Below are positions 6,188-61,788 of a stretch of 64,000 nt of DNA, in pieces. The notes below the pieces were generated by a model. That model saw nothing but the letters and a program-made list of their open reading frames with translations, was not told where the DNA came from and did not search any database. The position numbers and the translations under genes are program-made. Numbering within the stretch: position 1 is the first letter of the stretch; each line of letters opens with the position of its first letter. The DNA comes from a bacterium BMS3Abin01 (GTDB lineage: Bacteria > Actinomycetota > Thermoleophilia > BMS3ABIN01): assembly GCA_002897715.1 (NCBI GenBank), contig BDUA01000039.1, positions 244 to 64,243 on the forward strand, written 5' to 3'.

Positions 6188-7296
6188 TCCTGGTGCTCCT
6201 GTAGGAAGGCCAGAATGGTATCGATCACCTGGCCGAGCTGTGCCTGGTCGATCTCAGGGAAAACGGGCAGCGAAAGGATCTCCTTCACTATCCGTTCAGT
6301 GACCGGCAGGACCATACCCCCCGTCTCATCTGCATAAGCCGGCTGCTTATGCACCGGGACCGGATAGTGGACCAGGGTCCGCACCCCCCTGGTTGACAGG
6401 TACGACTGCAGTTCATCCCGCCTGGCTGTGCGGATAACGAACAGATGATAAACATGGCGACCCCATTCCCGCTCCACCGGCAGTATCAATCCCGAGCCGG
6501 ACAGCCCCCGGCGATAAACAGACGCCGCCCGCCGGCGCCTGTTCGAATATTCATCCAGCCTCTTCAGCTTTACCCGTAGTATTGCCGCCTGTATCTCGTC
6601 CAGCCGGCTGACGTCGCCCTTGTAGATGTTCAGGTATCGCTGCTGGCCCTGGCCGCAGTTGGCCAGGGAGCGGATCTTGGCCGCCAGGCCGCTGTCGGCG
6701 GTAACCACGGCGCCGCCATCGCCGCAAGCCCCCAGGTTCTTTGTGGGATAAAAACTGAAACAGCCCACGGTACCGATGGTCCCGGCGGCGCGCCCCTTGT
6801 ACGCGGCGCCATGGGCCTGGGCACAATCCTCTATCACGGCCAGTCCGTGTTCCCCGGCAAAAGCCATAATGGGGTCCATGTCCGCCGGATGTCCATAAAG
6901 ATGCACCGGCATGACCGCCCTGGTCCGGTCGGTCCTCACCCTTTCCAGCCCCTCCGTATTCATGCAGTATGTATCCTCATCCACATCCAGGAGAACCGGC
7001 CTGGCCCCGGTCTTGGAGATGGCCAGGGCCGTGTTCACCGCAGTATGGGAAACGGTGACCACCTCGTCACCGGCACCGATGTCCAGCGCCTTGAGCGCCA
7101 GGTACAAGGCATCGGTTCCGGAATTCACTGTGGCGACCTCCACCCCTCCCAGCCAGCGTCCGAATTCTTCCTCAAAGGCTTCTACGTTTTCACCCAGCAC
7201 GAAACAGCCGCCGGCAAGTACCCGGGAGACAGCCGCGTCTATCTCGTCTTTAAGGTCTTCATAACCGGCCTTCAGATCGATATAAGGAACATCCAT
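6166..7296 (-). CDS. DegT/DnrJ/EryC1/StrS (ArnB-like) PLP-dependent sugar aminotransferase
   Basis: Fold-type I aminotransferase signature: 'VLGENVEAFEEEFGRWLG', 'VNSGTDALYLAL', 'VTVSHTAV', 'FSFYPTKNLGACGDGG' (lysine region). Confidence 0.85.
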   Translation of the reverse strand: MDVPYIDLKAGYEDLKDEIDAAVSRVLAGGCFVLGENVEAFEEEFGRWLGGVEVATVNSGTDALYLALKALDIGAGDEVVTVSHTAVNTALAISKTGARPVLLDVDEDTYCMNTEGLERVRTDRTRAVMPVHLYGHPADMDPIMAFAGEHGLAVIEDCAQAHGAAYKGRAAGTIGTVGCFSFYPTKNLGACGDGGAVVTADSGLAAKIRSLANCGQGQQRYLNIYKGDVSRLDEIQAAILRVKLKRLDEYSNRRRRAASVYRRGLSGSGLILPVEREWGRHVYHLFVIRTARRDELQSYLSTRGVRTLVHYPVPVHKQPAYADETGGMVLPVTERIVKEILSLPVFPEIDQAQLGQVIDTILAFLQEHQDCLQPSS

Positions 7297-7298
7297 GA

Positions 7299-8390
7299 CT
7301 AGATGAATTCCAGGTGTTTCCGGTTTTCAACTATCCAGTCGCGCGCCAGCACGGCCGCCTCGTGGAACGGACAGTCGAACACGGCGCATTCCCTGGGCCT
7401 GGTGGCGTGAAACGCATCGAGGTGACGCCGGCTGTACCAGATCTCCGGAAAGCTCTTGTTATAGACATTGCCGATGCGGTGTGTTTTCTTGCGATGATGG
7501 AAAAAGGCGCAGAGGTACATGGTGCCGGTGGCGTCGATCACCGGATGGATGGGGTTGAGAAAGCAGCGTCCGATGACTTTCGTCTTTTCCAGGCTGCCGA
7601 AAACCTGGAATGATTCATCCGAGAGCTCCATGGCCCGCTGCGCGACTTCGCCGGCACGCTCCAGCTCATCGCCTTCCAGGGTGAACTTGCTGGCGCGCAG
7701 TGCCTTGTATTGAAGGTAATCCAGCCCCATGTCCCTGGCAAGCTCCGCGGCGACAGCCAGCTCCGGCCAGTTCTTGCTGGAAACCAGGTATTTAGCGCCG
7801 ATGGTGGCGCTGCCGTATTTTAACCGCCGCGCCGCGCCTTCCCCTTCCCCGGTTGTCCTGGTTCTCCGGTCTGCCAGATCCTCAAGATTCCTGACAAGGG
7901 TTTCGAACTCATCCCGCCCATGGATCTTCCGGTAGGTTTCCCGGGTGCCCGCGTCAAAGGCCACCCGCAGGAACAGCAGATTCTGCACCAGGAACTCCGA
8001 CAGCTCGTCGTTCAGCAGGGTGCCATTGGTGAACATCCCCACTTTCAGGCCCCGGCTGCGCATGAAGGCTATCGCCGGGACGATGCTGGGGTAAAGCAGC
8101 GGCTCCCCCCCTCCCGATATCTCCACTCCCTCCACCCCCAGCTCGGCTATGTCGGTCACGACCTCCTTGAAAATTTCGAAATCAAGAAAGCGCTCCTCGT
8201 CTTTGTGCATATACCGGGAATGGCAGCCGGCACAGGCGTGGTTGCAGGTATTGGACAGGAAGAACTCCATGGTGCGGGGAACGGGCATCTTGCCCTCCAG
8301 TATCTGCCGCACCTCGTGGTAGCAGGAAAGGATCTTCATCGCCCCGATGGGGATCTTGTCTACGCTAATCATGGTCAGCTTTCCGGTCAT
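7299..8390 (-). CDS. Radical SAM enzyme with C-terminal Cys-rich SPASM/twitch-like extension
   Basis: 'CNHACAGC' CxxxCxxC motif. Additional C-terminal cysteines (CFLNP...CAFF...CAVFDC). Translationally coupled to the downstream GT2. Confidence 0.75.
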   Translation of the reverse strand: MTGKLTMISVDKIPIGAMKILSCYHEVRQILEGKMPVPRTMEFFLSNTCNHACAGCHSRYMHKDEERFLDFEIFKEVVTDIAELGVEGVEISGGGEPLLYPSIVPAIAFMRSRGLKVGMFTNGTLLNDELSEFLVQNLLFLRVAFDAGTRETYRKIHGRDEFETLVRNLEDLADRRTRTTGEGEGAARRLKYGSATIGAKYLVSSKNWPELAVAAELARDMGLDYLQYKALRASKFTLEGDELERAGEVAQRAMELSDESFQVFGSLEKTKVIGRCFLNPIHPVIDATGTMYLCAFFHHRKKTHRIGNVYNKSFPEIWYSRRHLDAFHATRPRECAVFDCPFHEAAVLARDWIVENRKHLEFI

Positions 8391-42009: not shown

Positions 42010-42085
<76 letters not shown>

Positions 42086-42100
42086 GATACCTGCCTGTCC

Positions 42101-43420
42101 CTACTTAACTTTTCCCGTGAACATGGGGATGCCCACACGCTTGCGGGCGGTCTCTCCCCTGAACAGATCCCCCTTGCGCGCCGGCGCGTCGCCGCGCTCT
42201 CCCAGGTGCTGCCCGAACCTGTGGGCGGCGAAACTGGAGCCCAGGAAAAGCGTATGCTTGCCGTACTTGAGACGCACCCCATCCACCGCCGCGTAGACCC
42301 GCCCCACCTTCTCTATCTGCGCCGTCATCCCGAACAGGTCCGGCTGGAGGATGACATCATCCTCCAGCTTGAACAGCACCACCCCCGTGGAGCGGTAGAG
42401 CTTCCCCGGGTTGAACAGCCGCTCGAAGGCCGGCTCCAGGGCGGCCAGCACCTGGTGGGGAAAGGCGGTGGGACGCGAGAAGCGGACCTCGGCGCCCGCA
42501 CCGCGAAAGTCCCGGGTCTTCAGGAAACATACGGCCCGGCCCGCCGCCAGATGATAGCGCCGCGCCTTCATGGTGGCGTTCTCCACGTTCTTGGAAAGCT
42601 GGGCGAAGACGAACTCCCGGTCTCCCGACGGCGGCGTGAAGGTCTTCATCTTCCGGATGGAGCCGTAGGTCTCTTTTTCCTCCGTCTCCAGGCCGATGAC
42701 AGCCTCACCGTTGAGCTCCCGCCAGGTTTCCTGAAAGGGTTTGCTGAACCGTTCCTTCACCCACACCTCGTCCTTGAGGGCGAACTGCAGCGCCGTGCTT
42801 ACCCCCTGCTTGCCCAGGAAGGCGGTGGTCTGGGGTCCTATCCCCCATACCCTGTCCACCGGCAACCGCTCCAGGTAGCGGGCGATGTCCCGGCCGGGGA
42901 CCGCCGTCAGCCCCGACGGCTTCTTCCACTTGGAGGCTATCTTGGCGATGGTCTTGTTGGGGGCCAGCCCCACGGAGAAGGTGAAGCCGAAACAGCGTTC
43001 CAACTCCTCCTTCATGGCCCGGGCGATACCCGGATAGCCCATACGCAACGGCCGGCGCATGCCGGTGATGTCGGCGAAACACTCGTCGATGCCGTATTCC
43101 TCCACCTCCGGCGTGTACTTGCGCACGATGCTGAAAAAACGCCGGGAGAGCAGGCTGTAGGTCTCGTAGTCCGAGGGCAGGAACACCGCGTCGGGACACA
43201 GGCGCCTCACCTCGGAGAGGCGCATGGCACGCTCCACGCCGCGGGCCTTGGCCTCATAGCTCATGGACGCCACGATATTGCGCTCCTTGCCGGTAATGAC
43301 CGGCCGCCCCTTGAGTTCCGGGTTGCGCGACTGCTCCACGGCGGCGAAAAAGGCGTCAGCGTCGATATGGATGATGGCTCGCGGATAGGAGCCGATGGCG
43401 ATTACCCTGTCGTTTCCCAC
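42101..43420 (-). CDS. Y-family (DinB/UmuC-like) translesion DNA polymerase, second gene of the lexA operon
   Basis: 'AIIHIDADAFFAAVE' and 'YGIDECFADITG' catalytic D/D/E motifs. Extended C-terminus (~440 aa total). Start tentatively at GTG 43418-43420, because the track ATG at 43591 lies 135 nt inside lexA. Confidence 0.7.
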   Translation of the reverse strand: MGNDRVIAIGSYPRAIIHIDADAFFAAVEQSRNPELKGRPVITGKERNIVASMSYEAKARGVERAMRLSEVRRLCPDAVFLPSDYETYSLLSRRFFSIVRKYTPEVEEYGIDECFADITGMRRPLRMGYPGIARAMKEELERCFGFTFSVGLAPNKTIAKIASKWKKPSGLTAVPGRDIARYLERLPVDRVWGIGPQTTAFLGKQGVSTALQFALKDEVWVKERFSKPFQETWRELNGEAVIGLETEEKETYGSIRKMKTFTPPSGDREFVFAQLSKNVENATMKARRYHLAAGRAVCFLKTRDFRGAGAEVRFSRPTAFPHQVLAALEPAFERLFNPGKLYRSTGVVLFKLEDDVILQPDLFGMTAQIEKVGRVYAAVDGVRLKYGKHTLFLGSSFAAHRFGQHLGERGDAPARKGDLFRGETARKRVGIPMFTGKVK

Positions 43421-43455
43421 GATAAACCGGTTTCGTCGGGACCACCGGAGCGGTC

Positions 43456-44025
43456 TCAGTATTTCCGGATCACCGCCTTCACTACCGCCGCCGCCCTGAG
43501 CTCCTTCTCCGGGTAGATCGGCTTGTACCTGCGATTGGCGGCCTCCAGATACACCTTGCCGCCCCGCTGGCGAAAATACTTCATGGTCCACTCGCCGTCC
43601 ACCTCGGCGATGATGATGTCACCGTCCTTCTCCCGCACGCCCCGCTCCACCAGGACCATGTCCCCCGGCATGATGCCGGCATCGATCATGGAATCTCCCT
43701 GCACCTTGAGCATGAAGGTGGCCCCCGGTCGTTCCACCAGGAACTCGTCCAGGGTCATGGTGTCCAGCAGCTCCTCCTCCGCCGGTGAAGGCCAGCCGGC
43801 GCTCACCGCTCCCAGCAGGGTGACACTGTGGAAGCGCCTGCCCGGCAACAGCCGGCCGGTCTCGTCCCGCTCCACCAGCCCCAGCTCCACCAGGCGGTTC
43901 ACCAGCTTGTGAGTACTGCCCTTGGAACTGAGCCCCGCCGCCCTGGCTATCTCGCTATGGCTGGGCATGCGCCGGTGGGCACGGTAGAAATCCCTTATCT
44001 TGTCGAAATGTCTGGGCGTCTCCAT
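43456..44025 (-). CDS. lexA: LexA transcriptional repressor (SOS regulator)
   Basis: wHTH N-terminus 'MPSHSEIARAAGLSSKGSTHKLVNRLVELGL'. S24 peptidase 'VQGDSMIDAGIMPGDMVLVER' Ser/Lys dyad region. Start set at 'METPRHFDKIRDF' (ATG 44023-44025) rather than the track TTG at 44064. Confidence 0.85.
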   Translation of the reverse strand: METPRHFDKIRDFYRAHRRMPSHSEIARAAGLSSKGSTHKLVNRLVELGLVERDETGRLLPGRRFHSVTLLGAVSAGWPSPAEEELLDTMTLDEFLVERPGATFMLKVQGDSMIDAGIMPGDMVLVERGVREKDGDIIIAEVDGEWTMKYFRQRGGKVYLEAANRRYKPIYPEKELRAAAVVKAVIRKY

Positions 44026-44066
44026 GACAGGAACAGTATAGGCGTACGTTCGTACGCCTGTCAAGA
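44026..44066 (-). promoter_or_regulatory. lexA promoter with SOS-box-like 8-2-8 palindrome in the spacer
   Basis: Minus strand reads TTGACA-GGCGTACGAACGTACGCC-TATACT, with the ATG 9 nt downstream. Perfect inverted repeat GGCGTACG-AA-CGTACGCC between a consensus -35 and a near-consensus -10. Confidence 0.65.
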
Positions 44067-44106: not shown

Positions 44107-45681
44107 TCAACCGCCGGGGTATGGAGCCGGGATCAGGTATGTCTCACCGCTGCCGGCCATGGCGGTGGCGAAGAGCGTGGAGCGGAACGAATCTACTCCC
44201 TGGGGAATCCTGTATTTGAGGGTGAAGGAGCTTCCCTGGCTGCCGGGGTCAACGATCCCCGTCGCCAGCGGCAGTGGCGTCGTCATAGCCGCGCCACCGC
44301 TCTCTATGGAGCCGACGATAGTGAGCTCCTGGATGAAAACTTCCTGGCTGGTGATCCTGTAATCAACCGACAACTCCCCCGACTGGTAATCCGCATAGGA
44401 TGACCAGTATATATTTGTTGCGGCGATACCAAAGTTATTGTCTATCACTACTCCGATCTCCGCAGTACCGGCATTGCCGGCGGCATCGTATGCAACCGCC
44501 CTCAGGACGTGGGGGCCGCTGGCAAAACCCCCGGTCGCCAGGTCAAAGTCATAAGGCGCGGCGGTTCTGACGCCCGCCAGGTTATCGCCGACATAGAGCT
44601 CCACCCTGGAGACCGCATCATTGTCCGAGGCGGCTGTGACAACGGTCACCGTATCCGACAGGCTGGCTCCCGGGAGCGGCGAGTCGATGGAAACGGTCGG
44701 CGCGGTGACATCCGGAGCCTTGGCGGCGTTACGGAAGGCCTCGAGGCTCCCCGGAGAGCTATTGACTCGCCAGTCAGTTTCCTTGTTGGTATCGAACCAG
44801 ACCAGGCTCTCGATCCTGGGGAACCTGACCGGAAGGCTGGCAAACGTGTCGGTTATCCAGCCGGGTTTGCTGCCACCCAGCTCGGCTGACGCGGTCTCGC
44901 ACACCATGACCGGTTTGCCGCTACGCGCGGTGAACTCATCGTAGCTGGGTCCGAAGATGGCAGCGAAATCCCGCCATACAGAGGTCCATTCCGGCGTGTT
45001 TTGCGTCGTGCCCCAGTTGTATCCGTCCAGGCCCAGATAATCGATATAGGCATCACCGGGATAATATGTGCTGAAGGTACCGGCGGCGCCCGCAGCGTCG
45101 CTATTGGCATTCGGTGACCAGACGAACTCCACGTTCGCGGCGCCCTCCTGGACGAAGATGTCGTGAATATGACGCCAGGCCGGGATGAAGTCCGAAGGCT
45201 GGTTGCCGTTGGCCGTGCCCGACCAGACGGTCCAGTCACCATTCATCTCGGGCATCGGCCGGAAACGGACCGGATAGCCGAAGTCTCTCAGTTGACGCGC
45301 CCAACGGTGGATGTCGCCGTCGAAGTTGCCGCTGGTTATATTCCGCAGCTGATAGTCGGGCTGGTTGATCAGGTCGGCGGCGCCGGGGTCCCATGGCTCC
45401 CAGGTCACCATTATGATCTTTCCCTGCTGGGAGATAGAACGTAAAGCGCCCGCGTTGAAGTCGTCACCAATAGCGTAGAAAGAATGAAAGATGTCGACGG
45501 CGCGACCGGTATCGTTCTCGAAGCTCCCCAGGTCTCCCGGATTCTCAAGGAATACCCCCAGCTTGAAGCCCGGAGCGGTAGCAGCATCAGCGCTGTCGTT
45601 ACTTACCATTAACACGCCCGCGAGAAGCAGCGGCAGAAAAGCGATTGTGATTAAAGATCGGAGCGAACTCATTGAAGTCAA
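44107..45681 (-). CDS. Secreted glycoside hydrolase family 26 (beta-mannanase-like) with C-terminal Ig-like domains
   Basis: Signal peptide. 'VRFRPMPEMNGDW' (GH26 acid/base region) and 'VMVCETAS' (nucleophile region). C-terminal beta-rich repeats. Confidence 0.7.
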   Translation of the reverse strand: MTSMSSLRSLITIAFLPLLLAGVLMVSNDSADAATAPGFKLGVFLENPGDLGSFENDTGRAVDIFHSFYAIGDDFNAGALRSISQQGKIIMVTWEPWDPGAADLINQPDYQLRNITSGNFDGDIHRWARQLRDFGYPVRFRPMPEMNGDWTVWSGTANGNQPSDFIPAWRHIHDIFVQEGAANVEFVWSPNANSDAAGAAGTFSTYYPGDAYIDYLGLDGYNWGTTQNTPEWTSVWRDFAAIFGPSYDEFTARSGKPVMVCETASAELGGSKPGWITDTFASLPVRFPRIESLVWFDTNKETDWRVNSSPGSLEAFRNAAKAPDVTAPTVSIDSPLPGASLSDTVTVVTAASDNDAVSRVELYVGDNLAGVRTAAPYDFDLATGGFASGPHVLRAVAYDAAGNAGTAEIGVVIDNNFGIAATNIYWSSYADYQSGELSVDYRITSQEVFIQELTIVGSIESGGAAMTTPLPLATGIVDPGSQGSSFTLKYRIPQGVDSFRSTLFATAMAGSGETYLIPAPYPGG

Positions 45682-46135
45682 GTCTCCTGGTCGGCAGCCA
45701 AGCTGTCATAGCCCCGGTGGACCTTAGACCTTTGGCTTTGCGCCGCCCCGTTTCCGGGGTTTTGCCTTTTTCACAGGGGCCCGGCTTCTCCCAATACCCA
45801 AACCCGTGTCTGTAAGCTATATCGGAAATGATCTTGAGAATATTAACCGCACAGACATCGACGGTTTGAGCGGTTATAGCCCCGTTTTTCGGAAACGGCG
45901 GCACGGTGGAAGCGGCATCCGGCCGGATAGGCGGCAATCAGGTGAGTTCCGTATTGAAATAATCGTACATTTATGAGACTATTACTTTGTTTTGGGGCAC
46001 TGTTGCACTTATTGAAGGCGGGAAAAGCGGGGGCATGGCTGGCCTGAGCGGAGCCTGGGCCGTAAGATGTTGGCCGGGATTAAGCAGGTTTATAGTCCCG
46101 CCGGAAATGTAGATCAGCTATAGAGAATTAAAAAA

Positions 46136-47266
46136 ATGTCTGATTGCCCCAGCAACAACAGAGATATTGCAGGCATGAATATCGTGGTTTTAGTGCCTGC
46201 CCATAACGAGGAAGAATCAGTCGAGGCCACCGTCTCGTCTTTATTGTCGCAAAGCCGGTTACCGGACCTGGTCGTCGTGATTTGCGATAACTGCACGGAC
46301 GATACGGAAGACGTGGCCAGCATCTTCACCTATCATCCGAATTTCCGTTTACTCCGAACCGTCGACAACACCCACCGGAAATCGGGCGCGCTCAACCTGG
46401 CCTACTCGAAATTCTGCGACGATGCCGATCTCATCATCACGGTCGATGCCGACACCATCCTCTCACCGACAGCAATCGAGAACTGGGAGCGGGAGTTTGA
46501 AGCCGATCCTGATCTGGGCGGTTCCGTGGCCAGATTCACCATACGCGGCACAGACATCCTCAGCAGGCTGCAGCGAAACGAGTATGCTCGCGGCATCGAC
46601 ATGGGATTGCGCCGGGGATGGACCTCCGTGCTGGGCGGCGCCGCCAGCGCCCTCAGAAAATCCGTTATGGATCGGGTGGCGGCGCTGCAGGACGGGCGTT
46701 CCGGCCCCTGGACCTACGCCTCGCTGGTGGAAGACTTCGAGCTGACTTACAAAATACACAGCTTCGGATGCCGCTGCTGCATCTCCCCCACCGTGCGTGC
46801 TTACACCGATTCGATGAAAACCATCCGGTCGCTGTGGGGCCAGCGCATGAAATGGCAGGTCGGCACCGTATCGGAGCTGTTCAAGGTAGGCATCAACAAG
46901 GTATCCCTGCTTCAATGGTACTCCCAGATCCAGGGAATGCTCGTCGTCGTTATCAGGATCCTTTGGTTGTATCTGATGGCTACCGCCATCGCTGCCGGAC
47001 ATCTCACTTTCAATCTGTGGTGGATCTGGATTCTCATACCGGTGATCATCACCGCCAATGAATTCAAGCACGCCCTTCGGATCCCCCATCGAGACCGGTG
47101 GGACCTGGTAATCGTTTTAACGGTCTTACCGGTCGAGCTCTTCTCGTGGCTACGCATGGGGTGGTTCGTTGCCGGCTGGTGGAAAGCCGTGATGGCCAAC
47201 ATCACCGGCCGTCAGAAAGACTGGTGGGCAATGCAATATCAAGCCGAGAGAGGGGGTGATAGATAA
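46136..47266 (+). CDS. GT2 glycosyltransferase with C-terminal TM helices, processive synthase-like (NodC/PgaC/cellulose-synthase-like)
   Basis: 'VLVPAHNEE', 'DNCTDDT' and 'TVDADT' (DxD). 'GQRMKWQ' resembles the Q(Q/R)xRW motif. Three to four C-terminal TM helices. Confidence 0.7.
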   Translation: MSDCPSNNRDIAGMNIVVLVPAHNEEESVEATVSSLLSQSRLPDLVVVICDNCTDDTEDVASIFTYHPNFRLLRTVDNTHRKSGALNLAYSKFCDDADLIITVDADTILSPTAIENWEREFEADPDLGGSVARFTIRGTDILSRLQRNEYARGIDMGLRRGWTSVLGGAASALRKSVMDRVAALQDGRSGPWTYASLVEDFELTYKIHSFGCRCCISPTVRAYTDSMKTIRSLWGQRMKWQVGTVSELFKVGINKVSLLQWYSQIQGMLVVVIRILWLYLMATAIAAGHLTFNLWWIWILIPVIITANEFKHALRIPHRDRWDLVIVLTVLPVELFSWLRMGWFVAGWWKAVMANITGRQKDWWAMQYQAERGGDR

Positions 47267-47427
47267 TGAATTACGGAACAGGATCTACATTGAGTACCGC
47301 CTCGCTGCCTGTAACAGGCCTTGCGTTCAACTATCCGCTATGGATCATAGTCACCGTGGCCACCGGGCTGTTTGTTGTTGGGGCGCTGGTATCCCTGATA
47401 AGGAAACCGGGGGAGAACCGGCCGTAA
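47266..47427 (+). CDS. 53-aa single-TM peptide resembling an isolated LPXTG sorting signal, translationally coupled to the GT2
   Basis: ATG overlaps the GT2 stop (TAATG). 'AGGGGGTGA' Shine-Dalgarno 6 nt upstream. Sequence MNYGTGSTLSTAS-LPVTG-[26 hydrophobic]-IRKPGENRP. Absent from the track (<60 aa). Confidence 0.5.
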   Translation: MNYGTGSTLSTASLPVTGLAFNYPLWIIVTVATGLFVVGALVSLIRKPGENRP

Positions 47428-47593: not shown

Positions 47594-49342
47594 ATGGACA
47601 GGCAACAGGAAACAGCCACCGGCCGGAAGCTGATGCGCTTGTTGACAGATATGGTGACAGAGAGGGGCTCCGGGTTTAAATACCGTCTTTTCTTTTCGAT
47701 TGCGGTATCTGTTTTTCTGTTTTCCGCCCATACGGCCTTCGCGGCCCAGACCTATGTCTCGCTAACCTTCGATGACGGCCGGGCCAGCCAGGTCAACGCC
47801 GGACCCATACTGGAGGCTTATGGCGTCCAGGGCACCTTCTACATCATCTCCGGCGACCTGGGCAGCGACCCGTATTACATGTCGCTGGACCAGGCCTACG
47901 GTCTGGCGGCGGCGGGGAATGAAATAGGCGGGCACACCCGCACGCACCCCGACCTGACGCAACTCCCGGAGAGCGCGGCGGCTGAAGATATCTGCGGCGA
48001 CCAGCAGCAGTTGCAAAGCTGGGGCTTCCCCGCGGTGTCGTTTGCTTACCCCTTCGGCGCCACCAACCCGGCTGTGGAAGCGATCGTAAGCAGCTGCAAG
48101 GAGCGCGGCTACAGCGTGTCGGCGGATTATTCCAGCGCCCGCATCGTCGGCGGCCTGCAATGTCCCGGCTGCGATGTTGCCGAGAGCCTGCCGCCACAGG
48201 ATGCTTTTTCCATACGCACCGCCGGTGACGGCCCCAAAAACTCGACGACCCTGGATGACCTCAAATCCATGGTCATCCAGGCGGAGGCAACTGGTGGCTG
48301 GCTGGTGATCCCCTTCCATTCAGTATGCTCCGCACCCGGCACGGCGCCCGTACCCGGTGACGCCAGCGACTGCGGCGGCTTGTACTCCACCTCTTACGAC
48401 GACCTCGATCAGTTCGTCCAGTGGTTGAGCGGACGTTCCGGTTCGGGTACGACGATCAAGACGGTCGGTGAGGTCATGCAGATGTCGTTCCCACCACCGC
48501 CGCCGCCCGTCCCCGCCGGGCCGAACCTGGTGTTGAACCCTTCCCTGGAACTGGATGCGAACGTCGATGACATACCTGACGGATTCCTTCTCAGCGGCTA
48601 TGGCGCCAATATATATAGCTATTCCCGCGTTAATTCCGGCGCCCATTCCGGCACTTACGCCGAGCGGCTGACCATTGCCTCCCTGAGCAGCGGCGACCGT
48701 AAGCTGATTACGACCCAGGACCTGAGCAGCTGGAACATTTTCGCCGTTCCGGGCGAGAGTTATGAGACCTCGGTCTGGTACCGGTCCGACGTGCCCATCC
48801 TGCTCATCGCTTTTTACCATGATGCCGGTGGCTGGCACTACTGGAGTGAAAGCCCCCAGGCGGCCGCTTCCGGCTCCTGGACGGAACTGAACTGGCGTAC
48901 CCCGCCGATGCCAGCGGGCGCAGATTACTGGAGTTTCGGGCCGGCGCTCCTCCAGGCCGGGACCATGACCATTGACGACTTCAGCGCCGCCATGGCCAAT
49001 GACGGCGGCAACGCCTGTGAGAACGCCAGGCCCGCGCTGTCATTGAGCAATACCTCCGTTTACTGGGCCAGCTTCACCGACTACCAGTCCAATGAACTGA
49101 GCGTGGATTTCGACATGACCAACACCGGTTCCACGACATCCTACAACGTACAGGTGGAAGACCTGCCGGCGACCAACGGCGTCATCTGCGTCACTTCGCC
49201 GCCCCTGCTGCTGGGCCATATCCCGCCGGGCGGCTTACGGTCATTCACGGTCAGATACAGCATTCCGCCGGGCGCCAACAGCTTCCGGGCGTCGGTTTCC
49301 GCTTCGGCCGAGGATGGCTGCGCCGCCAGCTACCGCTATTGA
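47594..49342 (+). CDS. Secreted polysaccharide deacetylase (CE4, NodB homology domain) with C-terminal beta-rich domains
   Basis: Signal peptide. 'VSLTFDDGRASQ' (motif 1, Asp-Asp), 'GHTRTHPDL' (His motif), 'FAYPFGATN'. ~300-aa C-terminal extension. Confidence 0.8.
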   Translation: MDRQQETATGRKLMRLLTDMVTERGSGFKYRLFFSIAVSVFLFSAHTAFAAQTYVSLTFDDGRASQVNAGPILEAYGVQGTFYIISGDLGSDPYYMSLDQAYGLAAAGNEIGGHTRTHPDLTQLPESAAAEDICGDQQQLQSWGFPAVSFAYPFGATNPAVEAIVSSCKERGYSVSADYSSARIVGGLQCPGCDVAESLPPQDAFSIRTAGDGPKNSTTLDDLKSMVIQAEATGGWLVIPFHSVCSAPGTAPVPGDASDCGGLYSTSYDDLDQFVQWLSGRSGSGTTIKTVGEVMQMSFPPPPPPVPAGPNLVLNPSLELDANVDDIPDGFLLSGYGANIYSYSRVNSGAHSGTYAERLTIASLSSGDRKLITTQDLSSWNIFAVPGESYETSVWYRSDVPILLIAFYHDAGGWHYWSESPQAAASGSWTELNWRTPPMPAGADYWSFGPALLQAGTMTIDDFSAAMANDGGNACENARPALSLSNTSVYWASFTDYQSNELSVDFDMTNTGSTTSYNVQVEDLPATNGVICVTSPPLLLGHIPPGGLRSFTVRYSIPPGANSFRASVSASAEDGCAASYRY

Positions 49343-49377: not shown

Positions 49378-50949
49378 TCACCGGCCCGGATCCCCACCGG
49401 CTCTTTCCAGAGTGTAGATACCCCCGTCATCCAGCCAGACCGTCTGCTCGATATGGGCGGCTCGCCGCAGGTCGTCGACAGTAAATAAATAGTCGCCCTT
49501 TATCTTGTCGAACCAGACCAGGCATGCCTCGCCCTCTTCCGGCCATCTGCCCCTGAGCTGTGAAAGGTCGTTGAGCGCATCCGGGGAGTTGACGTTTGAT
49601 TTCAGCGGGGCCATCCTGGCGTGAAGACCGGCCAGGATGTAGGCGACATCCGGTCCGTTCGTGTAATAGGTACACCCGGACCCCGGACCCGGATGATCGA
49701 CAAGGTACTGAACAGTGTCGCTGCCTTTCCAGTATTTACCGTTATAACCCCATCCCCCTTCGCTGATATGTTTCTCCACCAGCGATAATGTCGCTGTCGC
49801 CGGATAGACCATGAAGATAATAATCACGGCTGCCAGGGAAAGATCGACCAGCCTCTGCGGAAAACGCCGGCCCAGTATAACCGAGGCCCGGCCCACCAGT
49901 AACAGCAGCAGCAGAAGTACGGGGACAGCAACCGGGGACAGCAACCGGTTGCCGATCTCATCGAAGCCGATAATCGATGAATATCCGGCCAGGAAACCGG
50001 TATAGCCGGCTACCAGCAGGAGAATCGGGCCTATATCCTGTAGCGTGGCTCTCATCTTCGACCTGTTGGCCCAAAGGGCTGCTCCGGCCAGGAAGCTGAC
50101 CGCCAGGCCTGCCAGCACCACCATGGCATCGTTCCCGGTGACCGTTTCCGGAACAAACCAGTGGAGAAGGGTTTTCAGGGTGAGCATCAGGTTCTGCGAT
50201 AACGAGTAGACCGATGAGGTCCGTGAGCCGAAGGTGACGCCGGCAACATGATAGTTCCTCATCGCCCAGATTCCCAGCGGCAGGATGGAGATAGGCAGAA
50301 ACAGGGCAAGGTGCCGGATCCTTGTCTTCATATCCTTGGGGCTGAACAGCAGGATGCTGACAACCCCTGCCGGAACGAGGACGGCGCCGATGTATCTTGT
50401 CATGCAGGCCAACGCCACCGACACCGACAGGAGCACTATGGAGCGGGTTTCACCTTCTTCCTGATATGACCGGAAGTTGATCAGATACAGGAGAATAAAA
50501 CAGATGAACAGAAGCTCCGACCATGCCATCAGGGAGACTTCGACCAGCGCTACCGAAACCAGCAAAAAGGCCGTGCCCAGGAACGCCAGGAACAGGGACG
50601 GCTTCAGGTATTCGAAGAGCAGCAACCCGGACATGTATATGACCAGCCCGAACAGGCAGGCGTTGATAATCGGGGCCGCTGTCAGTGGATCGATTCCCAG
50701 AAAGACATTGGTAACCGCCAACAGCAGGGGATAAAGCGGCGGCTGCACTACCAGCGGCAAACCATTATAACTCATCACCCCGGCGCCACTGGCGATATTC
50801 CTGGCGGTGCCTATGTACCCCACCGAATCCGGCGACAGCCCGGCGCCATACCAGTGCGTCGCCAGCATTATCAGGCTGAACCCCGCCAGCGCCAGCGCGC
50901 CCAGAAGCAGCTTCTTCTTCATTTTACTCATCACTGCATACTCTGTCAC
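49378..50949 (-). CDS. GT-C fold membrane glycosyltransferase (ArnT/PMT/GT39-like)
   Basis: 11-13 TM helices. N-terminal loop 'GLSPDSVGYIGTARNIASG' resembles the GT-C first-loop motif. C-terminal soluble domain. Confidence 0.6.
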   Translation of the reverse strand: MTEYAVMSKMKKKLLLGALALAGFSLIMLATHWYGAGLSPDSVGYIGTARNIASGAGVMSYNGLPLVVQPPLYPLLLAVTNVFLGIDPLTAAPIINACLFGLVIYMSGLLLFEYLKPSLFLAFLGTAFLLVSVALVEVSLMAWSELLFICFILLYLINFRSYQEEGETRSIVLLSVSVALACMTRYIGAVLVPAGVVSILLFSPKDMKTRIRHLALFLPISILPLGIWAMRNYHVAGVTFGSRTSSVYSLSQNLMLTLKTLLHWFVPETVTGNDAMVVLAGLAVSFLAGAALWANRSKMRATLQDIGPILLLVAGYTGFLAGYSSIIGFDEIGNRLLSPVAVPVLLLLLLLVGRASVILGRRFPQRLVDLSLAAVIIIFMVYPATATLSLVEKHISEGGWGYNGKYWKGSDTVQYLVDHPGPGSGCTYYTNGPDVAYILAGLHARMAPLKSNVNSPDALNDLSQLRGRWPEEGEACLVWFDKIKGDYLFTVDDLRRAAHIEQTVWLDDGGIYTLERAGGDPGR

Positions 50950-55669: not shown

Positions 55670-55760
55670 CACACTCGACAAAGGCAAACCCGTCGTGAGG
55701 CGGGGACGCAAAGCCAGGGGTCTCCGGTTGGGAGACAGCCCAGCCGCCGAAGCTTTTTGA
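55670..55760 (+). ncRNA. Candidate cyclic-di-GMP-I (GEMM) riboswitch in the leader of the surface-protein cluster
   Basis: 'AAAGGCAAACC', then the GNRA hairpin CGUC-GUGA-GGCG, then 'GGGACGCAAAGCC' + AGGGG. Then hairpin GUCUCC-GGUUG-GGAGAC and 'CAGCCCAGCCGCC'. Matches the Vc2-type GEMM core '...GGCAAACC...GAAA...GGGACGCAAAGCC...GG' by eye. Confidence 0.55.
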
Positions 55761-55938: not shown

Positions 55939-56538
55939 GTGAAACGTTCAACGAAAATTGCTCTTCTGGCAGCAGGCACTACTCTAATCCTGGTCATGGC
56001 CCTTACTTCAGCGGTATACGGGGCCTCGTCGGCATCAGACCCCGTAGCGGTTACCCTGACGGTGGATGACTATATCTCCCTCAGCAACCCGGGCGATGTA
56101 GCACTGGCGAACATCGCCGGTACCGGCGGCTCGGCGGAAAACAGCGCCACCTGGACCGTAGCCACCAATAACGACGCCGGCTACAAGCTGGAGGTCTCCG
56201 CCTCCGGGACGCCGGCCATGACCAAGGGCGGCGACTCCTTCGCCGACCTGGTCGACGGCGGCACTCCCATTCCCTGGTCGGTGGCGTCAGCCGACTCCGC
56301 ATTTGGTTTCAGCGCCGAGGGCACGGCCACGTCCTCCTCGCTGTGGGGAACCCCCAGCACCGGCTCCGGCAAGTACCGCGGCTTCAGCGGCGGAACCGCC
56401 ATCGAGGTCGCCAACGACAGCAATGAGACCAGCGGTGAGGACACCACCATCTACTTCAAGGCCGAAGTAGGCGCCAGCCACCTGCAGGCCAGCGGTTCCT
56501 ACGCCGCCAACCTGACAGTCACAGCCACTACGCTGTAA
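55939..56538 (+). CDS. Secreted 199-aa beta-rich protein, possible divergent WxL-like cell-surface domain
   Basis: GTG start with AAAGGGGTG Shine-Dalgarno. Signal peptide. 'SATWTVATN', 'IPWSVAS', and C-terminal 'SYAANLTVTATTL' reminiscent of WxL motifs (YSATLTWTL). Confidence 0.4.
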   Translation: MKRSTKIALLAAGTTLILVMALTSAVYGASSASDPVAVTLTVDDYISLSNPGDVALANIAGTGGSAENSATWTVATNNDAGYKLEVSASGTPAMTKGGDSFADLVDGGTPIPWSVASADSAFGFSAEGTATSSSLWGTPSTGSGKYRGFSGGTAIEVANDSNETSGEDTTIYFKAEVGASHLQASGSYAANLTVTATTL

Positions 56539-58440: not shown

Positions 58441-61400
58441 TTATTCCGGATAGGCGGTATAGACCACGTTAGCGGTGTAACTGCCGGAGACAGACGGCGC
58501 CGGCACGACCAGACGGTAGTCGAACAGAAACGAGGCGCCGGCGGTCGCGGGCAGTCCGTCGGCTACGATCGTGCTCGCCGGGGTCTTCACAAACGGCTGA
58601 TAGGCCGATGGCGCCTGAGCGTTCTGCTTCCAGCCCAGGTTCACGATATCGATGAAATTGGCCGGATTGGACTGCAACAGATCCCCGTCAGACGCGACTT
58701 TCAGCCCCCAGGTGACATTGGACTTGACCGTGAGCCTGGCGGCATAAGCCGGAGACGAAGCATCCCCTACGTAATAGGTCGTACCCTCACTGACATTGCC
58801 GAAACCCACCGAGCTGGTACCCGGGGTGCCGTCACGGTTCCAGGTATCGTCGATGGTCACGGTTATGGAGCCCGGCGCCGGCACGTACTCGATCACCAGC
58901 TTGGGCCTGAGGGACGGATCGGCGCTGAAGTCGGATGAATAGAACAGTTTAACGTCAGACTCCGCCGGGTTCTCCACATCCTTCTTGATGATCATCCCCC
59001 TGTTGGTTACCGTGCCGTTCACCCATGACTGGGTCAACGCCGCAAGGTCCCAATCGACCCAGACCGCGGTCGCCGCCGGTGCCACGGCGCTGGCGCTGAC
59101 GGTGGCGTTGAAGTCCCCGCCGGGGCTGGCCCAGCTGCTGCTGCCGTCGTAGGTATTCCAGGTGGCCCCGTCACCGCTCTGGGTCCAGTAGCCGGTGCCC
59201 TCCGTCCAGTCGCGGGTAAGATAGTGCACGTCCATGGTCGGGGTGCTGGTATCCCCCTGACCCGCCTGGTAGAGCGACAGCGTTGCCGAGTTGATCGTCG
59301 ACCCGGTGGGTATGGCTGACAGGTCAAAACGAAGGTTGCAGCGTATGTTCCCCCAGAAGGAAGTGGGATAATCCCCCGCCAGCAGCCATGTCGTCGCGCC
59401 CGAGTTCAGGTCCGGCCGGTAGCTCTGCAGGGTATCGTCCACACCGTCGGCCGGCCCGGGCTGGATCACCATCTGGATGGCGGCCTGGAAGACATAGTCA
59501 CCGGAAACGGTCTCGTTGCCGGATGGGTCGATGGTTCTGACCCGGTAATGGTAGACGGTGCCCGCGGTCAGACCGGACAGGGACACCACGTGCTGGTTGC
59601 TGATGGCCGTGTCCAGAGTAGTGGTCGAACCATAACTGGTGGTGGTGCCGTATTCCACCTGGGATGTTCCCCCTTCGCAACTGGACCATTTTATGTCGGC
59701 TGTGGTGGTAGTGATGTTCTCAGCCCGGACCTCGCCCAGGTTGGGGGGCGTGACATCGTCGCCCAGCCATTCGATGGTCAGCTTGGGTCTTAACGTACGG
59801 TCCACCACGTATTCGGAGGAGTAGAATTCCTTGGCGTCACTGCCGGTGGGGCTCTCCGGATCCTGTTTGATGAGGACACCGAAATTGTCAACAGTGCCGT
59901 CTATCCAGTCCCGGGTGAGCGCAGCCAGATCCCAGTCCACCCAGACACCGGTGACCCCGGGCGCCACGGCGCTGGCGCCGGCGGTGGCGTTGAAATCCCC
60001 GCCGGGGCTGGTCCAGCTGTTGCTGCCGTCGTAGGTGTCCCAGGTGGCCCCGTCGCCGGTTACCGATCCGCTGCCGGTCCCTTCACTCCAGTCGCCGGTC
60101 AGATAGTGGGCATCCAGGTCAGGGGTACTGCTGTCCCCCTGACCCATCTGGTACAGTGACATGGTAGCGCTGTTGATGGTGGCGCCGGCCGGTATGAAAC
60201 CCAGGTCGAAATCCAGCAGGGACCGCATGGTCCCCCAGTCGGCGCCCGGCAGGTCGCCGACCTGGAGGCTGGTCTCGGCGCCCCGGTTCCATGCAGGCCG
60301 TGAGCTGCCGATATACGTGTCCCTGGCCATGGCGGGAAAGGGCTGCAGAACGGTGATGTTGGCGGTCCTGAAGCTGTTCTCCGCCGAGTAGGAGATGTTA
60401 CCGGCCCGGTCCGCCGAACGCACACGGTAATAATAGGTAGTCGATTCCTGCAAGCCGGAGATGGGTTGGCTGTGGCCGGTCAGCATGGTGCTGTCCAGCG
60501 GCGTCGACCAGGTATATACGCCGGAACTGGTGCCATATTCCACCTGGGAGTCGGCGGCCTCGTCCGTGGTCCAGGTGATGATGACGTTGCTGCTGGCTAT
60601 ATTGCCCGCCTGCACTGCGGAGATCACCGGAAAGGTATTGTCAACATTAACCTGGATGGAAGACACCGCCGTGTTGTAAGCACGGTCCGTCGCCGTCAGG
60701 CGCAGGGTATAGAGGCCGTCGCTGACGGCGGCCGTGTCCCAGGTGCCCAGCAGGCCCGCCAGCACCGGGCTGGCGCCGATGGTAATCTGCGTCCACGAGA
60801 CCGGCGCCGCACCGGCGCCGTACTCCAGCAGGTAGTTATAGAAGCTGTAAGCGTCGTCTACCGTGCCCCGTACCGGCAGCGAACCAGAGACCCAGTCGCC
60901 GTCTGACGGGTCGGAGATGATGGCGGTGGGCGCGGAGGCGTCTATCTGGAGCATGCGTGACTGCCTCTGGATATCGTCGCCGGTGGCAGACAGCAGCCGC
61001 GTTCTCAGCCAGTACCAGTCACCGTCGGTAAGACCACCGGCCGGCAGGGTAAGCTGGAAATCATACCAGTTGCCGTTCCGGGTCACGGCAGGCGCCGCCC
61101 ACGACTTCACGCTGCTGTTGGTAAATCTCCGCAGCCGCTGCTGGCCGCTGCCGGTTAATATCTGGTCGTAGTCCGCCCCCGTGCCCCAGGCGCGGATGTA
61201 TACGGTGGCGCCGGGGGCAAAGGTGTAGGATTCATCTGTTCGCGCCGCATCGCTGTAAATTCTGGCGTACTGGTTTAGGCCGTACAGCGATATCTGCTGC
61301 TCGAACTGAACACGGGGGCCGCTGCCGCCGTTTCTCACCCTTCCCCATATTTTCATATAGTCTGACTGGCCGGCGGGGATGGTCACCTGGGACGTATAGA

Positions 61401-61788
61401 TATATGGCGCGGTGAAAGTGACCTGGGTCCAGTTGGCAACCCGGATATTGGTGTTCTGGTAGCGGCGTAACCGCATCCTGTTTCTCTTGCCGGAAACAGC
61501 GCCGACGCGGTCGGTCGTCACCCGCACATAGACCGTATCGCCCGGGTTGAACTCGGTGGTGTGAACCATACAGGCGGCATCGGCGCAGATCTCGATAATA
61601 TCGCCGTTGGCTTCGGTGTAGGGAGCATCCGGCCCCAGGACCGCCTGGGAGCGGTAGGCCGTCAGGAAAAAAACGGCCGCAGCCGCGGCCAGCACCAGCA
61701 GGACGCCGGCAAACGCCCTCCCTGGCTCCACCTGGTTATGATAATCATGCCGGCGGTCTTGCGCACCGGTTTCGGGCCCGTCTGCCAA
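58441..61788 (-). CDS. Giant (1115 aa) secreted/anchored protein with fibronectin type III domains and two tandem ~215-aa repeats
   Basis: N-terminal signal anchor. FN3-like 'VEYGTSSGVYTW...YYYRVRSADRAGN' and 'VEYGTTTSYGSTT...YHYRVRTIDPSGN'. Two repeats about 70% identical, 'SLLDFDLGFIPAGATINSATMSLYQMGQGDSSTPDLDAHYLTGDWSEGTG...RPKLTIEW' and 'RFDLSAIPTGSTINSATLSLYQAGQGDTSTPTMDVHYLTRDWTEGTG...RPKLVIEY'. Confidence 0.7.
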   Translation of the reverse strand: MADGPETGAQDRRHDYHNQVEPGRAFAGVLLVLAAAAAVFFLTAYRSQAVLGPDAPYTEANGDIIEICADAACMVHTTEFNPGDTVYVRVTTDRVGAVSGKRNRMRLRRYQNTNIRVANWTQVTFTAPYIYTSQVTIPAGQSDYMKIWGRVRNGGSGPRVQFEQQISLYGLNQYARIYSDAARTDESYTFAPGATVYIRAWGTGADYDQILTGSGQQRLRRFTNSSVKSWAAPAVTRNGNWYDFQLTLPAGGLTDGDWYWLRTRLLSATGDDIQRQSRMLQIDASAPTAIISDPSDGDWVSGSLPVRGTVDDAYSFYNYLLEYGAGAAPVSWTQITIGASPVLAGLLGTWDTAAVSDGLYTLRLTATDRAYNTAVSSIQVNVDNTFPVISAVQAGNIASSNVIITWTTDEAADSQVEYGTSSGVYTWSTPLDSTMLTGHSQPISGLQESTTYYYRVRSADRAGNISYSAENSFRTANITVLQPFPAMARDTYIGSSRPAWNRGAETSLQVGDLPGADWGTMRSLLDFDLGFIPAGATINSATMSLYQMGQGDSSTPDLDAHYLTGDWSEGTGSGSVTGDGATWDTYDGSNSWTSPGGDFNATAGASAVAPGVTGVWVDWDLAALTRDWIDGTVDNFGVLIKQDPESPTGSDAKEFYSSEYVVDRTLRPKLTIEWLGDDVTPPNLGEVRAENITTTTADIKWSSCEGGTSQVEYGTTTSYGSTTTLDTAISNQHVVSLSGLTAGTVYHYRVRTIDPSGNETVSGDYVFQAAIQMVIQPGPADGVDDTLQSYRPDLNSGATTWLLAGDYPTSFWGNIRCNLRFDLSAIPTGSTINSATLSLYQAGQGDTSTPTMDVHYLTRDWTEGTGYWTQSGDGATWNTYDGSSSWASPGGDFNATVSASAVAPAATAVWVDWDLAALTQSWVNGTVTNRGMIIKKDVENPAESDVKLFYSSDFSADPSLRPKLVIEYVPAPGSITVTIDDTWNRDGTPGTSSVGFGNVSEGTTYYVGDASSPAYAARLTVKSNVTWGLKVASDGDLLQSNPANFIDIVNLGWKQNAQAPSAYQPFVKTPASTIVADGLPATAGASFLFDYRLVVPAPSVSGSYTANVVYTAYPE

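Follow-up and report, generated by a model that had tools for sequence, protein, structure and literature searches.

The polysaccharide synthases HAS (hyaluronan synthase), NodC and PgaC possess one or two transmembrane (TM) helices N-terminal to their glycosyltransferase (GT) domain, and we know of no processive family 2 GT (GT2) synthase of the HAS/BcsA fold that needs a protein primer. In Actinomyces oris, GspA, a secreted LPXTG protein with a signal peptide, is glycosylated by the LCP enzyme LcpA and anchored by the housekeeping sortase SrtA, and sortase A is able to ligate peptides to amino-sugars in vitro. In the PEP-CTERM/exosortase systems described by Haft and colleagues, the enzyme and the C-terminal sorting signals that it processes are reportedly linked in the genome to exopolysaccharide (EPS) loci, some of the substrates being very short. 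PgaD and IcaD, which are small proteins of the membrane, are needed for full synthase activity (PMC7112194), and LAXTG is the recognition signal of the class E sortases of Actinobacteria (PMC5148588). Here, we analysed a stretch of 64,000 nucleotides (the window) from the bacterium BMS3Abin01, a name that in GTDB usage designates an order of Thermoleophilia, Actinomycetota (PMC13503563). Directly after the gene of a GT2 synthase, it contains a small open reading frame (sORF) for a peptide of 53 residues, called here the mini-protein, in which an LPVTG pentapeptide precedes a predicted TM helix and a basic tail. We give about even odds (roughly 0.5) to the reading that the mini-protein is at the same time a dedicated, obligate membrane partner of the synthase and a sortase substrate devoid of any passenger.

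The mini-protein gene occupies positions 47266..47427 of the plus strand, begins with ATG and is translated as MNYGTGSTLSTASLPVTGLAFNYPLWIIVTVATGLFVVGALVSLIRKPGENRP. Its M(N)YG N-terminus opens a segment of 13 polar, uncharged residues (MNYGTGSTLSTAS), followed by LPVTG (residues 14-18; codons at 47305..47319, plus strand), by 26 hydrophobic residues (residues 19-44; 47320..47397, plus strand) and by the basic C-terminal tail IRKPGENRP (47398..47424, plus strand), predicted to be cytoplasmic and ending in an RP that is conserved in the family. All parts of the passenger-less tripartite layout of a sorting signal, noticed by the first-pass annotation from the letters alone, were found. The AlphaFold2 model of the peptide is disordered at residues 1-16, forms a helix at residues 17-45 (core pLDDT 79-95) and ends with a loose C-terminal tail; together with the hydropathy, which has a 19-residue maximum of 2.6, it points to a single TM helix with the sortase-type pentapeptide at its outer edge. 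Considering the usual features of a sorting substrate, the peptide has the LPXTG-like pentapeptide and the hydrophobic segment with a positively charged C-terminal tail; it has no Sec signal peptide, no passenger domain and no second hydrophobic segment.

A purine-rich, Shine-Dalgarno (SD)-like site, GAGGGGGTGA (47250..47259, plus strand), is located 6 nt before the ATG, and the stop codon of the GT2 gene (TAA, 47264-47266) overlaps the start codon of the sORF (ATG, 47266-47268) in a TAATG at 47264-47268, both as first described. The peptide had been called unannotated. This is right only in part: GenBank entry GBE57907.1 (bacterium BMS3Abin01) annotates, as "hypothetical protein", a short-start form of 45 residues, which begins at an internal TTG (codon 9; window 47266-47292). 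The 53-residue form is called by the ENA, Logan and JGI gene predictions, and the N-terminal M(x)YG conserved in the family, with an SD site before it, identifies the ATG at 47266 as the true start.

Relative to its closest diverged copy, found in a JGI metagenome (locus L001), the sORF has 80% nucleotide identity, and 28 codons differ, 22 of them synonymously and 6 non-synonymously. The SD site and the stop/start overlap are retained in this copy (GAGGAGGTGAT...TGATG). In four close variants LPVTG is unchanged, although the codons of V16 and G18 show synonymous changes, and the order GT2-sORF-CE4 does not vary among the six metagenomic contigs in which it occurs. We also scanned the whole window in six frames for [LIVM][PA]x[TSA][GNSA] with a hydrophobic stretch behind it and then a C-terminal tail of basic character; the only match was the sORF at 47266-47427. 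These comparisons firmly support a real gene of 53 codons, with a predicted translational coupling to the GT2.

A word-indexed protein search with the window peptide as sole query returned near-identical sequences only. The homologues were recovered through the synteny of the GT2 gene: 75 genome loci and 80 metagenome loci were fetched and searched stringently for an ORF of 40-75 residues that adjoins the GT2 and combines M(x)YG with a TM segment and a basic tail. Such a family sORF adjoins the GT2 in 126 of the 153 loci (119 downstream and 7 upstream), in Actinomycetota and Saccharibacteria, mostly with gaps of -4 to +6 nt between the two genes, and the conservation beside orthologous GT2 genes that the first-pass annotation had proposed to check is present at this frequency. 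About a dozen of the 27 loci with no match have too little flanking DNA, and in 9 of 11 negative loci that were inspected a divergent small ORF with a single TM segment still follows the GT2, usually ending in RP or LP. Coincidence of composition, one of the explanations offered at first, is excluded by this synteny, by the purifying selection and by the family-specific profile described below.

In one clade (L052, L149, L151, L155, L156) the order is inverted, the sORF coming first and either overlapping the GT2 by 4 nt or ending 6 nt before it. Because the adjacency survives this permutation of gene order, a classic signature of subunits, the mini-protein appears subunit-like. The coordinates in this clade are 1609-2010 in L052, 4808-4980 in L155 and 711-863 in L156.

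A HMMER profile search of 1.84 billion representative proteins gave 41 clusters at E ≤ 1e-3, all but one of them proteins of 40-74 residues matched from end to end. Such matches indicate a specific family of small proteins, as opposed to a generic tail shared by large LPXTG proteins. Pfam has no entry that covers it, and a PDB sequence search with the peptide profile matched nothing meaningful. A KdpF identity was considered for the window peptide and rejected, the only match being of 12 bits (E 0.11). Within the family, Y3 and G4 are nearly invariant in one alignment (A2) and invariant in another (A4), an Arg, the first to follow the TM segment, is conserved, 52 of 60 distinct sORFs end in RP or KP, and LxxTG is the majority consensus immediately before the TM segment. 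The N-terminal tail contains on average 0.25 Lys/Arg, whereas the C-terminal tail contains 3.75 in 9.6 residues, and this bias suggests, by the positive-inside rule, an N-out/C-in topology. Judged by their sequences, the mini-proteins are a widespread family of predicted tiny membrane proteins adjoining a polysaccharide synthase. Divergent GT2 clades (L072, L150 and L152, with MSSHAGG...QKTRP, and L087, L103/L104, L137/L138 and L145) also have a downstream ORF with a single TM segment; in these clades (L072, L087, L145 and others) the ORF has neither the YG start nor the pentapeptide and usually keeps the RP or LP end.

The partner, a GT2 of 376 residues encoded at 46136..47266 (plus strand), matches Pfam PF00535, PF13641 and PF13632 and would be a membrane-embedded synthase. 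Its AlphaFold2 model (pLDDT 88.6, pTM 0.87) presents a GT-A domain at residues 16-225 together with an interface helix, three long helices of hydrophobic character and an amphipathic helix at the C-terminus. The best Foldseek matches, with E values from 1e-16 to 1e-10, are the Chlorella virus HAS (E 2.4e-16, TM-score 0.64), XlHAS1, BcsA and Chs1, and the GT2 is predicted to have the hyaluronan/cellulose-synthase-type fold (BcsA/HAS/Chs type). A QxxRW-type motif is present, the invariant motifs being QRMKW and (V)EDFELTY. Against TIGR03937 (PgaC_IcaA) the score is 91.7 bits for a cut-off of 422.3, as expected of a distant relative and not of an equivalog, and the PDB sequence search with the GT2 found only the GT domain of chondroitin synthase. 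More than 3000 GT2 homologues exist, and those of many Actinomycetota and Saccharibacteria have about 50% identity. The model begins directly with the GT-A domain, with no N-terminal TM helix. An N-out/C-in helix of the mini-protein could then fill, in trans, the position of the missing N-terminal helices. No natural GT2-sORF fusion was found among the longer GT2 homologues, whose extensions are N-terminal and non-TM, or C-terminal tails devoid of TM segments.

We then considered the likeness to a sorting signal. The strict motif L[PA]xTG is present in 38 of the 60 distinct sORFs, compared with 0.93 expected from composition-preserving shuffles (maximum of 6 in 2000), and in 70 of 114 sORFs of a larger set. 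About 25 of 36 new representative clusters at 50% identity, which are closer to independent samples, also carry it, mostly as LAxTG. The variants observed are LAYTG, LAFTG, LAATG, LAVTG, LAMTG, LALTG, LPVTG, LPMTG, LPSTG and LPATG, i.e. positions 1, 2, 4 and 5 of the motif are fixed and position 3 is free, with Ala predominating at position 2. The LPXTG_anchor model TIGR01167 matches 11 of 33 members, several above its cut-off of 15.9 bits (P0165, 22.8 bits; P0147, 20.4 bits; the L019 sORF, 19.8 bits). The homologues of Pseudarthrobacter enclensis, P. chlorophenolicus and Arthrobacter sulfonylureivorans have received from PGAP the name "LPXTG cell wall anchor domain-containing protein", others being named "hypothetical protein". 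In Micrococcaceae (L023-L049 and other loci), the sORF starts about 3 nt after the GT2, and the Arthrobacter and Pseudarthrobacter forms have two pentapeptide-like elements in a row, [ILVM]PA[ST]G near the N-terminus and LAYTG before the TM helix.

Sortase genes were searched for across the loci by a TLxTC scan and by tblastn. Six loci, which represent at least four lineages, have a sortase gene on the same strand just downstream of the sORF. In L050, the GT2 (5016-6077) is followed by the sORF (6179-6328; LPMTG), the sortase (6333-6953) and a CE4-like gene (7004-8074), and L053 (LPVTG) has the same clade and order; the gap between sORF and sortase is 4 nt in arrays of this type. In L057 the order is GT2, sORF (LAFTG), CE4-like gene and sortase (7588-8292), and L058 (LAFTG) is of the same clade and order. 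L088 contains the GT2 at 5007-6092, the sORF at 6099-6272 (ILPVTG), the CE4-like gene at 6293-7375 and the sortase at 7377-8042, and L135 the GT2 at 142-1305, the sORF ending at 1471 (LAATG) and the sortase at 1670-2374. Array sortases gave 89 and 117 bits with Pfam PF04203, and the best NCBIfam model for the two that were scanned (L050 and L057) is the class E sortase, with 140.7 and 151.5 bits, for a cut-off of 160. Four loci (L050, L053, L057 and L058) were scanned for other sorting-signal tails, and no ORF except the sORF has one; over 803 kb of related loci, tails of this kind with a strict L[PA]xTG occur in sORFs alone. It is unlikely that these co-oriented sortases, lying within about 1.3 kb in four independent lineages, are accidental, because the few sortase genes of a genome give, by a rough estimate, a chance below 1% per 10-kb window.

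Taken together, the data firmly support the proposal that this conserved, predicted single-pass membrane protein is a dedicated partner of the synthase family. The support is moderate for the proposal that, where a lineage has kept the motif, pentapeptide, TM helix and basic tail act as a functional sorting signal of class E type, and there are hints that polysaccharide synthesis is linked to wall anchoring. We infer the topology, the physical association with the GT2, the cleavage by sortase and its consequence, as follows. The uncharged N-terminal tail of 13-25 residues, beginning with the invariant M(x)YG, would be outside the cell, the short basic tail ending in RP would be cytoplasmic, and the single TM helix would pack with a synthase in which the N-terminal TM helices known from HAS, NodC and PgaC are missing. 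In the motif-keeping lineages, including the one with the LPVTG version of the window, a class-E-type sortase would most likely cut between T and G, and the short N-terminal peptide could then be transferred to lipid II or peptidoglycan. Such a transfer would couple the synthase, and perhaps the polymer, to the cell wall, either physically or by regulation: cleavage may tether the N-terminal peptide to the wall, may tether or regulate the synthase, or may attach the polymer.

Several observations weigh against this double role, most of them against its sortase half. A sortase was found within 5 kb in only 6 of about 155 loci, and the 64-kb window itself encodes neither a sortase nor a second LPXTG protein. 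Even at E ≤ 10 the window peptide matches none of TIGR01167, PF00746 and NF058583, and these three models likewise miss P0145, a close relative of it. The most conserved positions of the family, the N-terminal YG and the C-terminal RP, are not features of sorting signals. Some 30-40% of the members have no usable motif, which means that sortase cannot be needed for the core function; degenerate forms of the motif are seen in Actinoplanes (IPIAG), in Solirubrobacterales (VPVSLGT), which share their class with BMS3Abin01, in Pseudokineococcus and in most Saccharibacteria. It appears that the TM partner is older than the sorting-signal motif, or that the motif can be lost. The peptide has no N-terminal signal peptide, the export of its N-terminal tail being deduced from the positive-inside charge bias only, and its association with the GT2 is drawn from synteny. 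The sortase-substrate reading of the first-pass annotation stands, then, on the L[PA]xTG consensus, the TIGR01167 matches and the array sortases of six loci, and falls short at the window peptide itself, which the LPXTG models do not detect. Of its other reading, a PgaD/IcaD-like membrane partner, the partner role is favoured by the adjacency despite permuted order and by a GT2 of HAS/BcsA fold with no N-terminal TM helix, but the likeness does not extend to homology: neither the window peptide nor the 33 homologues matched PgaD or IcaD models of Pfam or NCBIfam at E ≤ 10, and this homology was rejected.

The main rival reading takes the motif as structural or vestigial. The mini-protein would then be a synthase subunit and nothing else, a TM helper resembling PgaD and IcaD by analogy, not homology, that completes or stabilises the channel of a minimal GT2; L[PA]xTG would be a helix cap or hinge, or an evolutionary relic, left unprocessed by sortase in BMS3Abin01. 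We regard this as quite possible, both for the subunit and for its idle motif, while holding it less probable than the double role. It accounts well for a small TM ORF that is universal, clades with a degenerate motif or none included, for YG and RP ends conserved more strongly than the pentapeptide, for an adjacency kept under permuted gene order, for a GT2 with no N-terminal TM helices, for a window with no sortase and for a peptide that fails the LPXTG hidden Markov models; pgaD and icaD, which encode non-homologous small membrane proteins, are moreover needed for full GT function (PMC7112194). What it leaves unexplained is the position-by-position match to the sortase consensus, including the actinobacterial switch from P to A and the free x, as well as the recurrence of class-E-like sortases in arrays with no other substrate.

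A more remote alternative is that the peptide serves chiefly to link the polymer to peptidoglycan, as a covalent anchor or primer and not as a structural subunit of the synthase, which we consider unlikely. Of its variants, each of them doubtful, one has the glycan carried by the invariant Tyr or by a Ser/Thr of the N-terminal tail, and the other has the peptide joined by sortase to an amine of the polymer deacetylated by the CE4 enzyme, the sorting signal fixing the conjugate to the wall. In the first, the tail would be glycosylated or primed by the synthase and threaded out with the nascent chain; in the second, it would be ligated to the deacetylated polymer by sortase; a class E sortase would finally, in this improbable chain of events, fix the glycan-peptide to peptidoglycan through L[PA]xTG. 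The invariant N-terminal Tyr-Gly, the uncharged tail rich in G, A, S and T, the constant co-occurrence of a deacetylase and the sortase within the operon in six loci would fit such an adaptor, and GspA of A. oris and the ligation to amino-sugars by sortase A are precedents. However, it does not account for the members with no motif, a 1:1 complex is what the tight translational coupling and the conserved cytoplasmic RP tail suggest, and processive GT2 synthases of the same fold are not known to need a protein primer. If true, it would mean a sortase-dependent attachment of a synthase-made polysaccharide to the Gram-positive wall, through a substrate with neither signal peptide nor passenger.

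There is next to no chance that the ORF is spurious or non-functional, i.e. a decayed remnant of an LPXTG surface protein or a chance frame in GC-rich DNA, as its very short length, the lack of a matching Pfam family and the GenBank name "hypothetical protein" might suggest, since the comparative data refute this through the 22:6 ratio of synonymous to non-synonymous changes relative to L001, the conserved ATG and SD site, the more than 110 distinct homologues at the same position across two phyla and a profile that retrieves full-length small proteins only.

The neighbouring genes belong to an exopolysaccharide locus. Downstream, 47594..49342 (plus strand) encodes a secreted or anchored CE4 polysaccharide deacetylase of 582 residues (PF01522, 62.9 bits) with a C-terminal Ig-like (immunoglobulin-like) or CBM-like (carbohydrate-binding-module-like) region, which also shows weak matches of HfsH, PdaB and NodB type. 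In about 50 related loci the sORF is followed by a CE4 or PgaB-like gene, and in other clades a protein of 350 residues with weak PgaB/IcaB similarity replaces CE4. Upstream and divergent from the GT2, a GH26-like glycoside hydrolase with a Big_7 domain is encoded at 44107..45681 on the minus strand (PF02156, 59.9 bits; PF17957, 59.1 bits). Homologues of this gene adjoin GT2 and sORF in 38 of the first 81 loci, in addition to the window, and in 14 of the 80 metagenome loci, and it is likely that its product is a hydrolase of the EPS system. A cyclic di-GMP (c-di-GMP)-I riboswitch aptamer at 45690..45776 (minus strand) matches Rfam RF01051 over its full length (1-87) with 83.1 bits, for a gathering threshold of 35. 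It lies directly upstream of the start of the GH26-like gene (45681), divergent from the GT2-sORF-CE4 operon, and the hydrolase seems to be under direct c-di-GMP control. GT2, mini-protein, CE4 deacetylase and GH26-like hydrolase are a c-di-GMP-linked, synthase-dependent exopolysaccharide module. Additionally, the C-terminal region of the GH26-like protein (residues ~417-515) has 36% identity to the C-terminal region of the CE4 deacetylase (match on the L003 CE4), which suggests, from the alignment, that the two proteins may share a surface-binding or carbohydrate-binding module.

Convergent with CE4, a GT-C/PMT_2-like membrane glycosyltransferase is encoded at 49378-50949 on the minus strand (weak PF13231; NF047440, 45 bits); its conservation is confined to L001-L005, the clade to which the window belongs. 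A second riboswitch, of the c-di-GMP-I-GGC type (RF03167, 73.9 bits), is present at 55674-55752 (plus strand), about 190 nt upstream of an ORF at 55939-56538 for 199 residues with only a weak Inhibitor_I66 match. On the other side of the locus, a tRNA-Lys(CTT) at 42010-42085 is followed by a minus-strand Y-family polymerase (IMS/IMS_C, 42101-43591) and by a LexA-like S24 peptidase with a helix-turn-helix domain (43456-44064, minus strand), a pair that is an SOS-type mutagenesis cassette beside the EPS locus. Farther away, 58441-61788 (minus strand) encodes what is probably a large surface protein, of 1114 residues and with no sorting signal, in which disaggregatase-related repeats are combined with a purple-acid-phosphatase or PhoD N-terminal domain and with fn3/Ig-like domains.

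Small partners of EPS synthases of the PgaD/IcaD type are poorly understood and lineage-specific, and the mini-proteins would add a new, widespread family for Actinomycetota and Saccharibacteria, with a clear signature and with culturable hosts, among them Pseudarthrobacter, Arthrobacter and Actinoplanes. Should the motif be in use, a sortase substrate can consist of the sorting signal alone and would join sortase/lipid II chemistry to a processive polysaccharide synthase, and the question of how Gram-positive bacteria retain synthase-made polymers on their surface would become directly testable. For annotation, the genes of the family have been variously missed, mis-started, named "hypothetical" or named as generic LPXTG anchors. 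Our literature searches (LAXTG small proteins, sortase with EPS synthase, PgaD/IcaD with LPXTG) found no description of the pairing of mini-protein and synthase, and the link of the homologues named "LPXTG anchor" to a synthase appears undescribed.

Among described families, one of the nearest is NF058583 (LAXTG_small_WW, a LAXTG small protein model of 54 positions), to which 9 of 33 members and most of the tested representatives align nearly full-length with 15-32 bits; the best member reaches 32.1 bits, below the cut-off of 65 bits, and the window peptide has no match. On these alignments NF058583 would be a narrower sister family or an analogous one. Like the sortase sorting signals of TIGR01167 and PF00746, the mini-protein has a pentapeptide, about 20-26 hydrophobic residues and a basic tail at the extreme C-terminus and, like the substrates of actinobacterial class E sortases, the family has the L[PA]xTG consensus with Ala predominating. 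Unlike usual substrates it has no signal peptide or passenger, the whole protein being the signal and a tail of 13-25 residues, and unlike usual sorting signals it has an invariant N-terminal YG, a C-terminal RP and a fixed GT2 partnership. The GspA-LcpA-SrtA system offers a precedent for a sortase substrate that carries a glycopolymer and is anchored to the wall; there, however, the substrate has a signal peptide, is glycosylated by an LCP enzyme and is not paired with a processive GT2. The PEP-CTERM/exosortase systems differ in being Gram-negative, with an unrelated motif and enzyme and with substrates that have signal peptides. With regard to PgaD/PgaC and IcaD/IcaA, the mini-protein differs in having one TM segment instead of two and 53 residues instead of about 100-140, in carrying a sorting-signal motif, and in a partner GT2 that is not a PgaC/IcaA equivalog. 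It resembles them in being a small membrane protein beside a processive GT2, in the CE4 deacetylase encoded within the same operon, and in the involvement of c-di-GMP, which there binds to PgaCD and here acts through the riboswitch of the locus.

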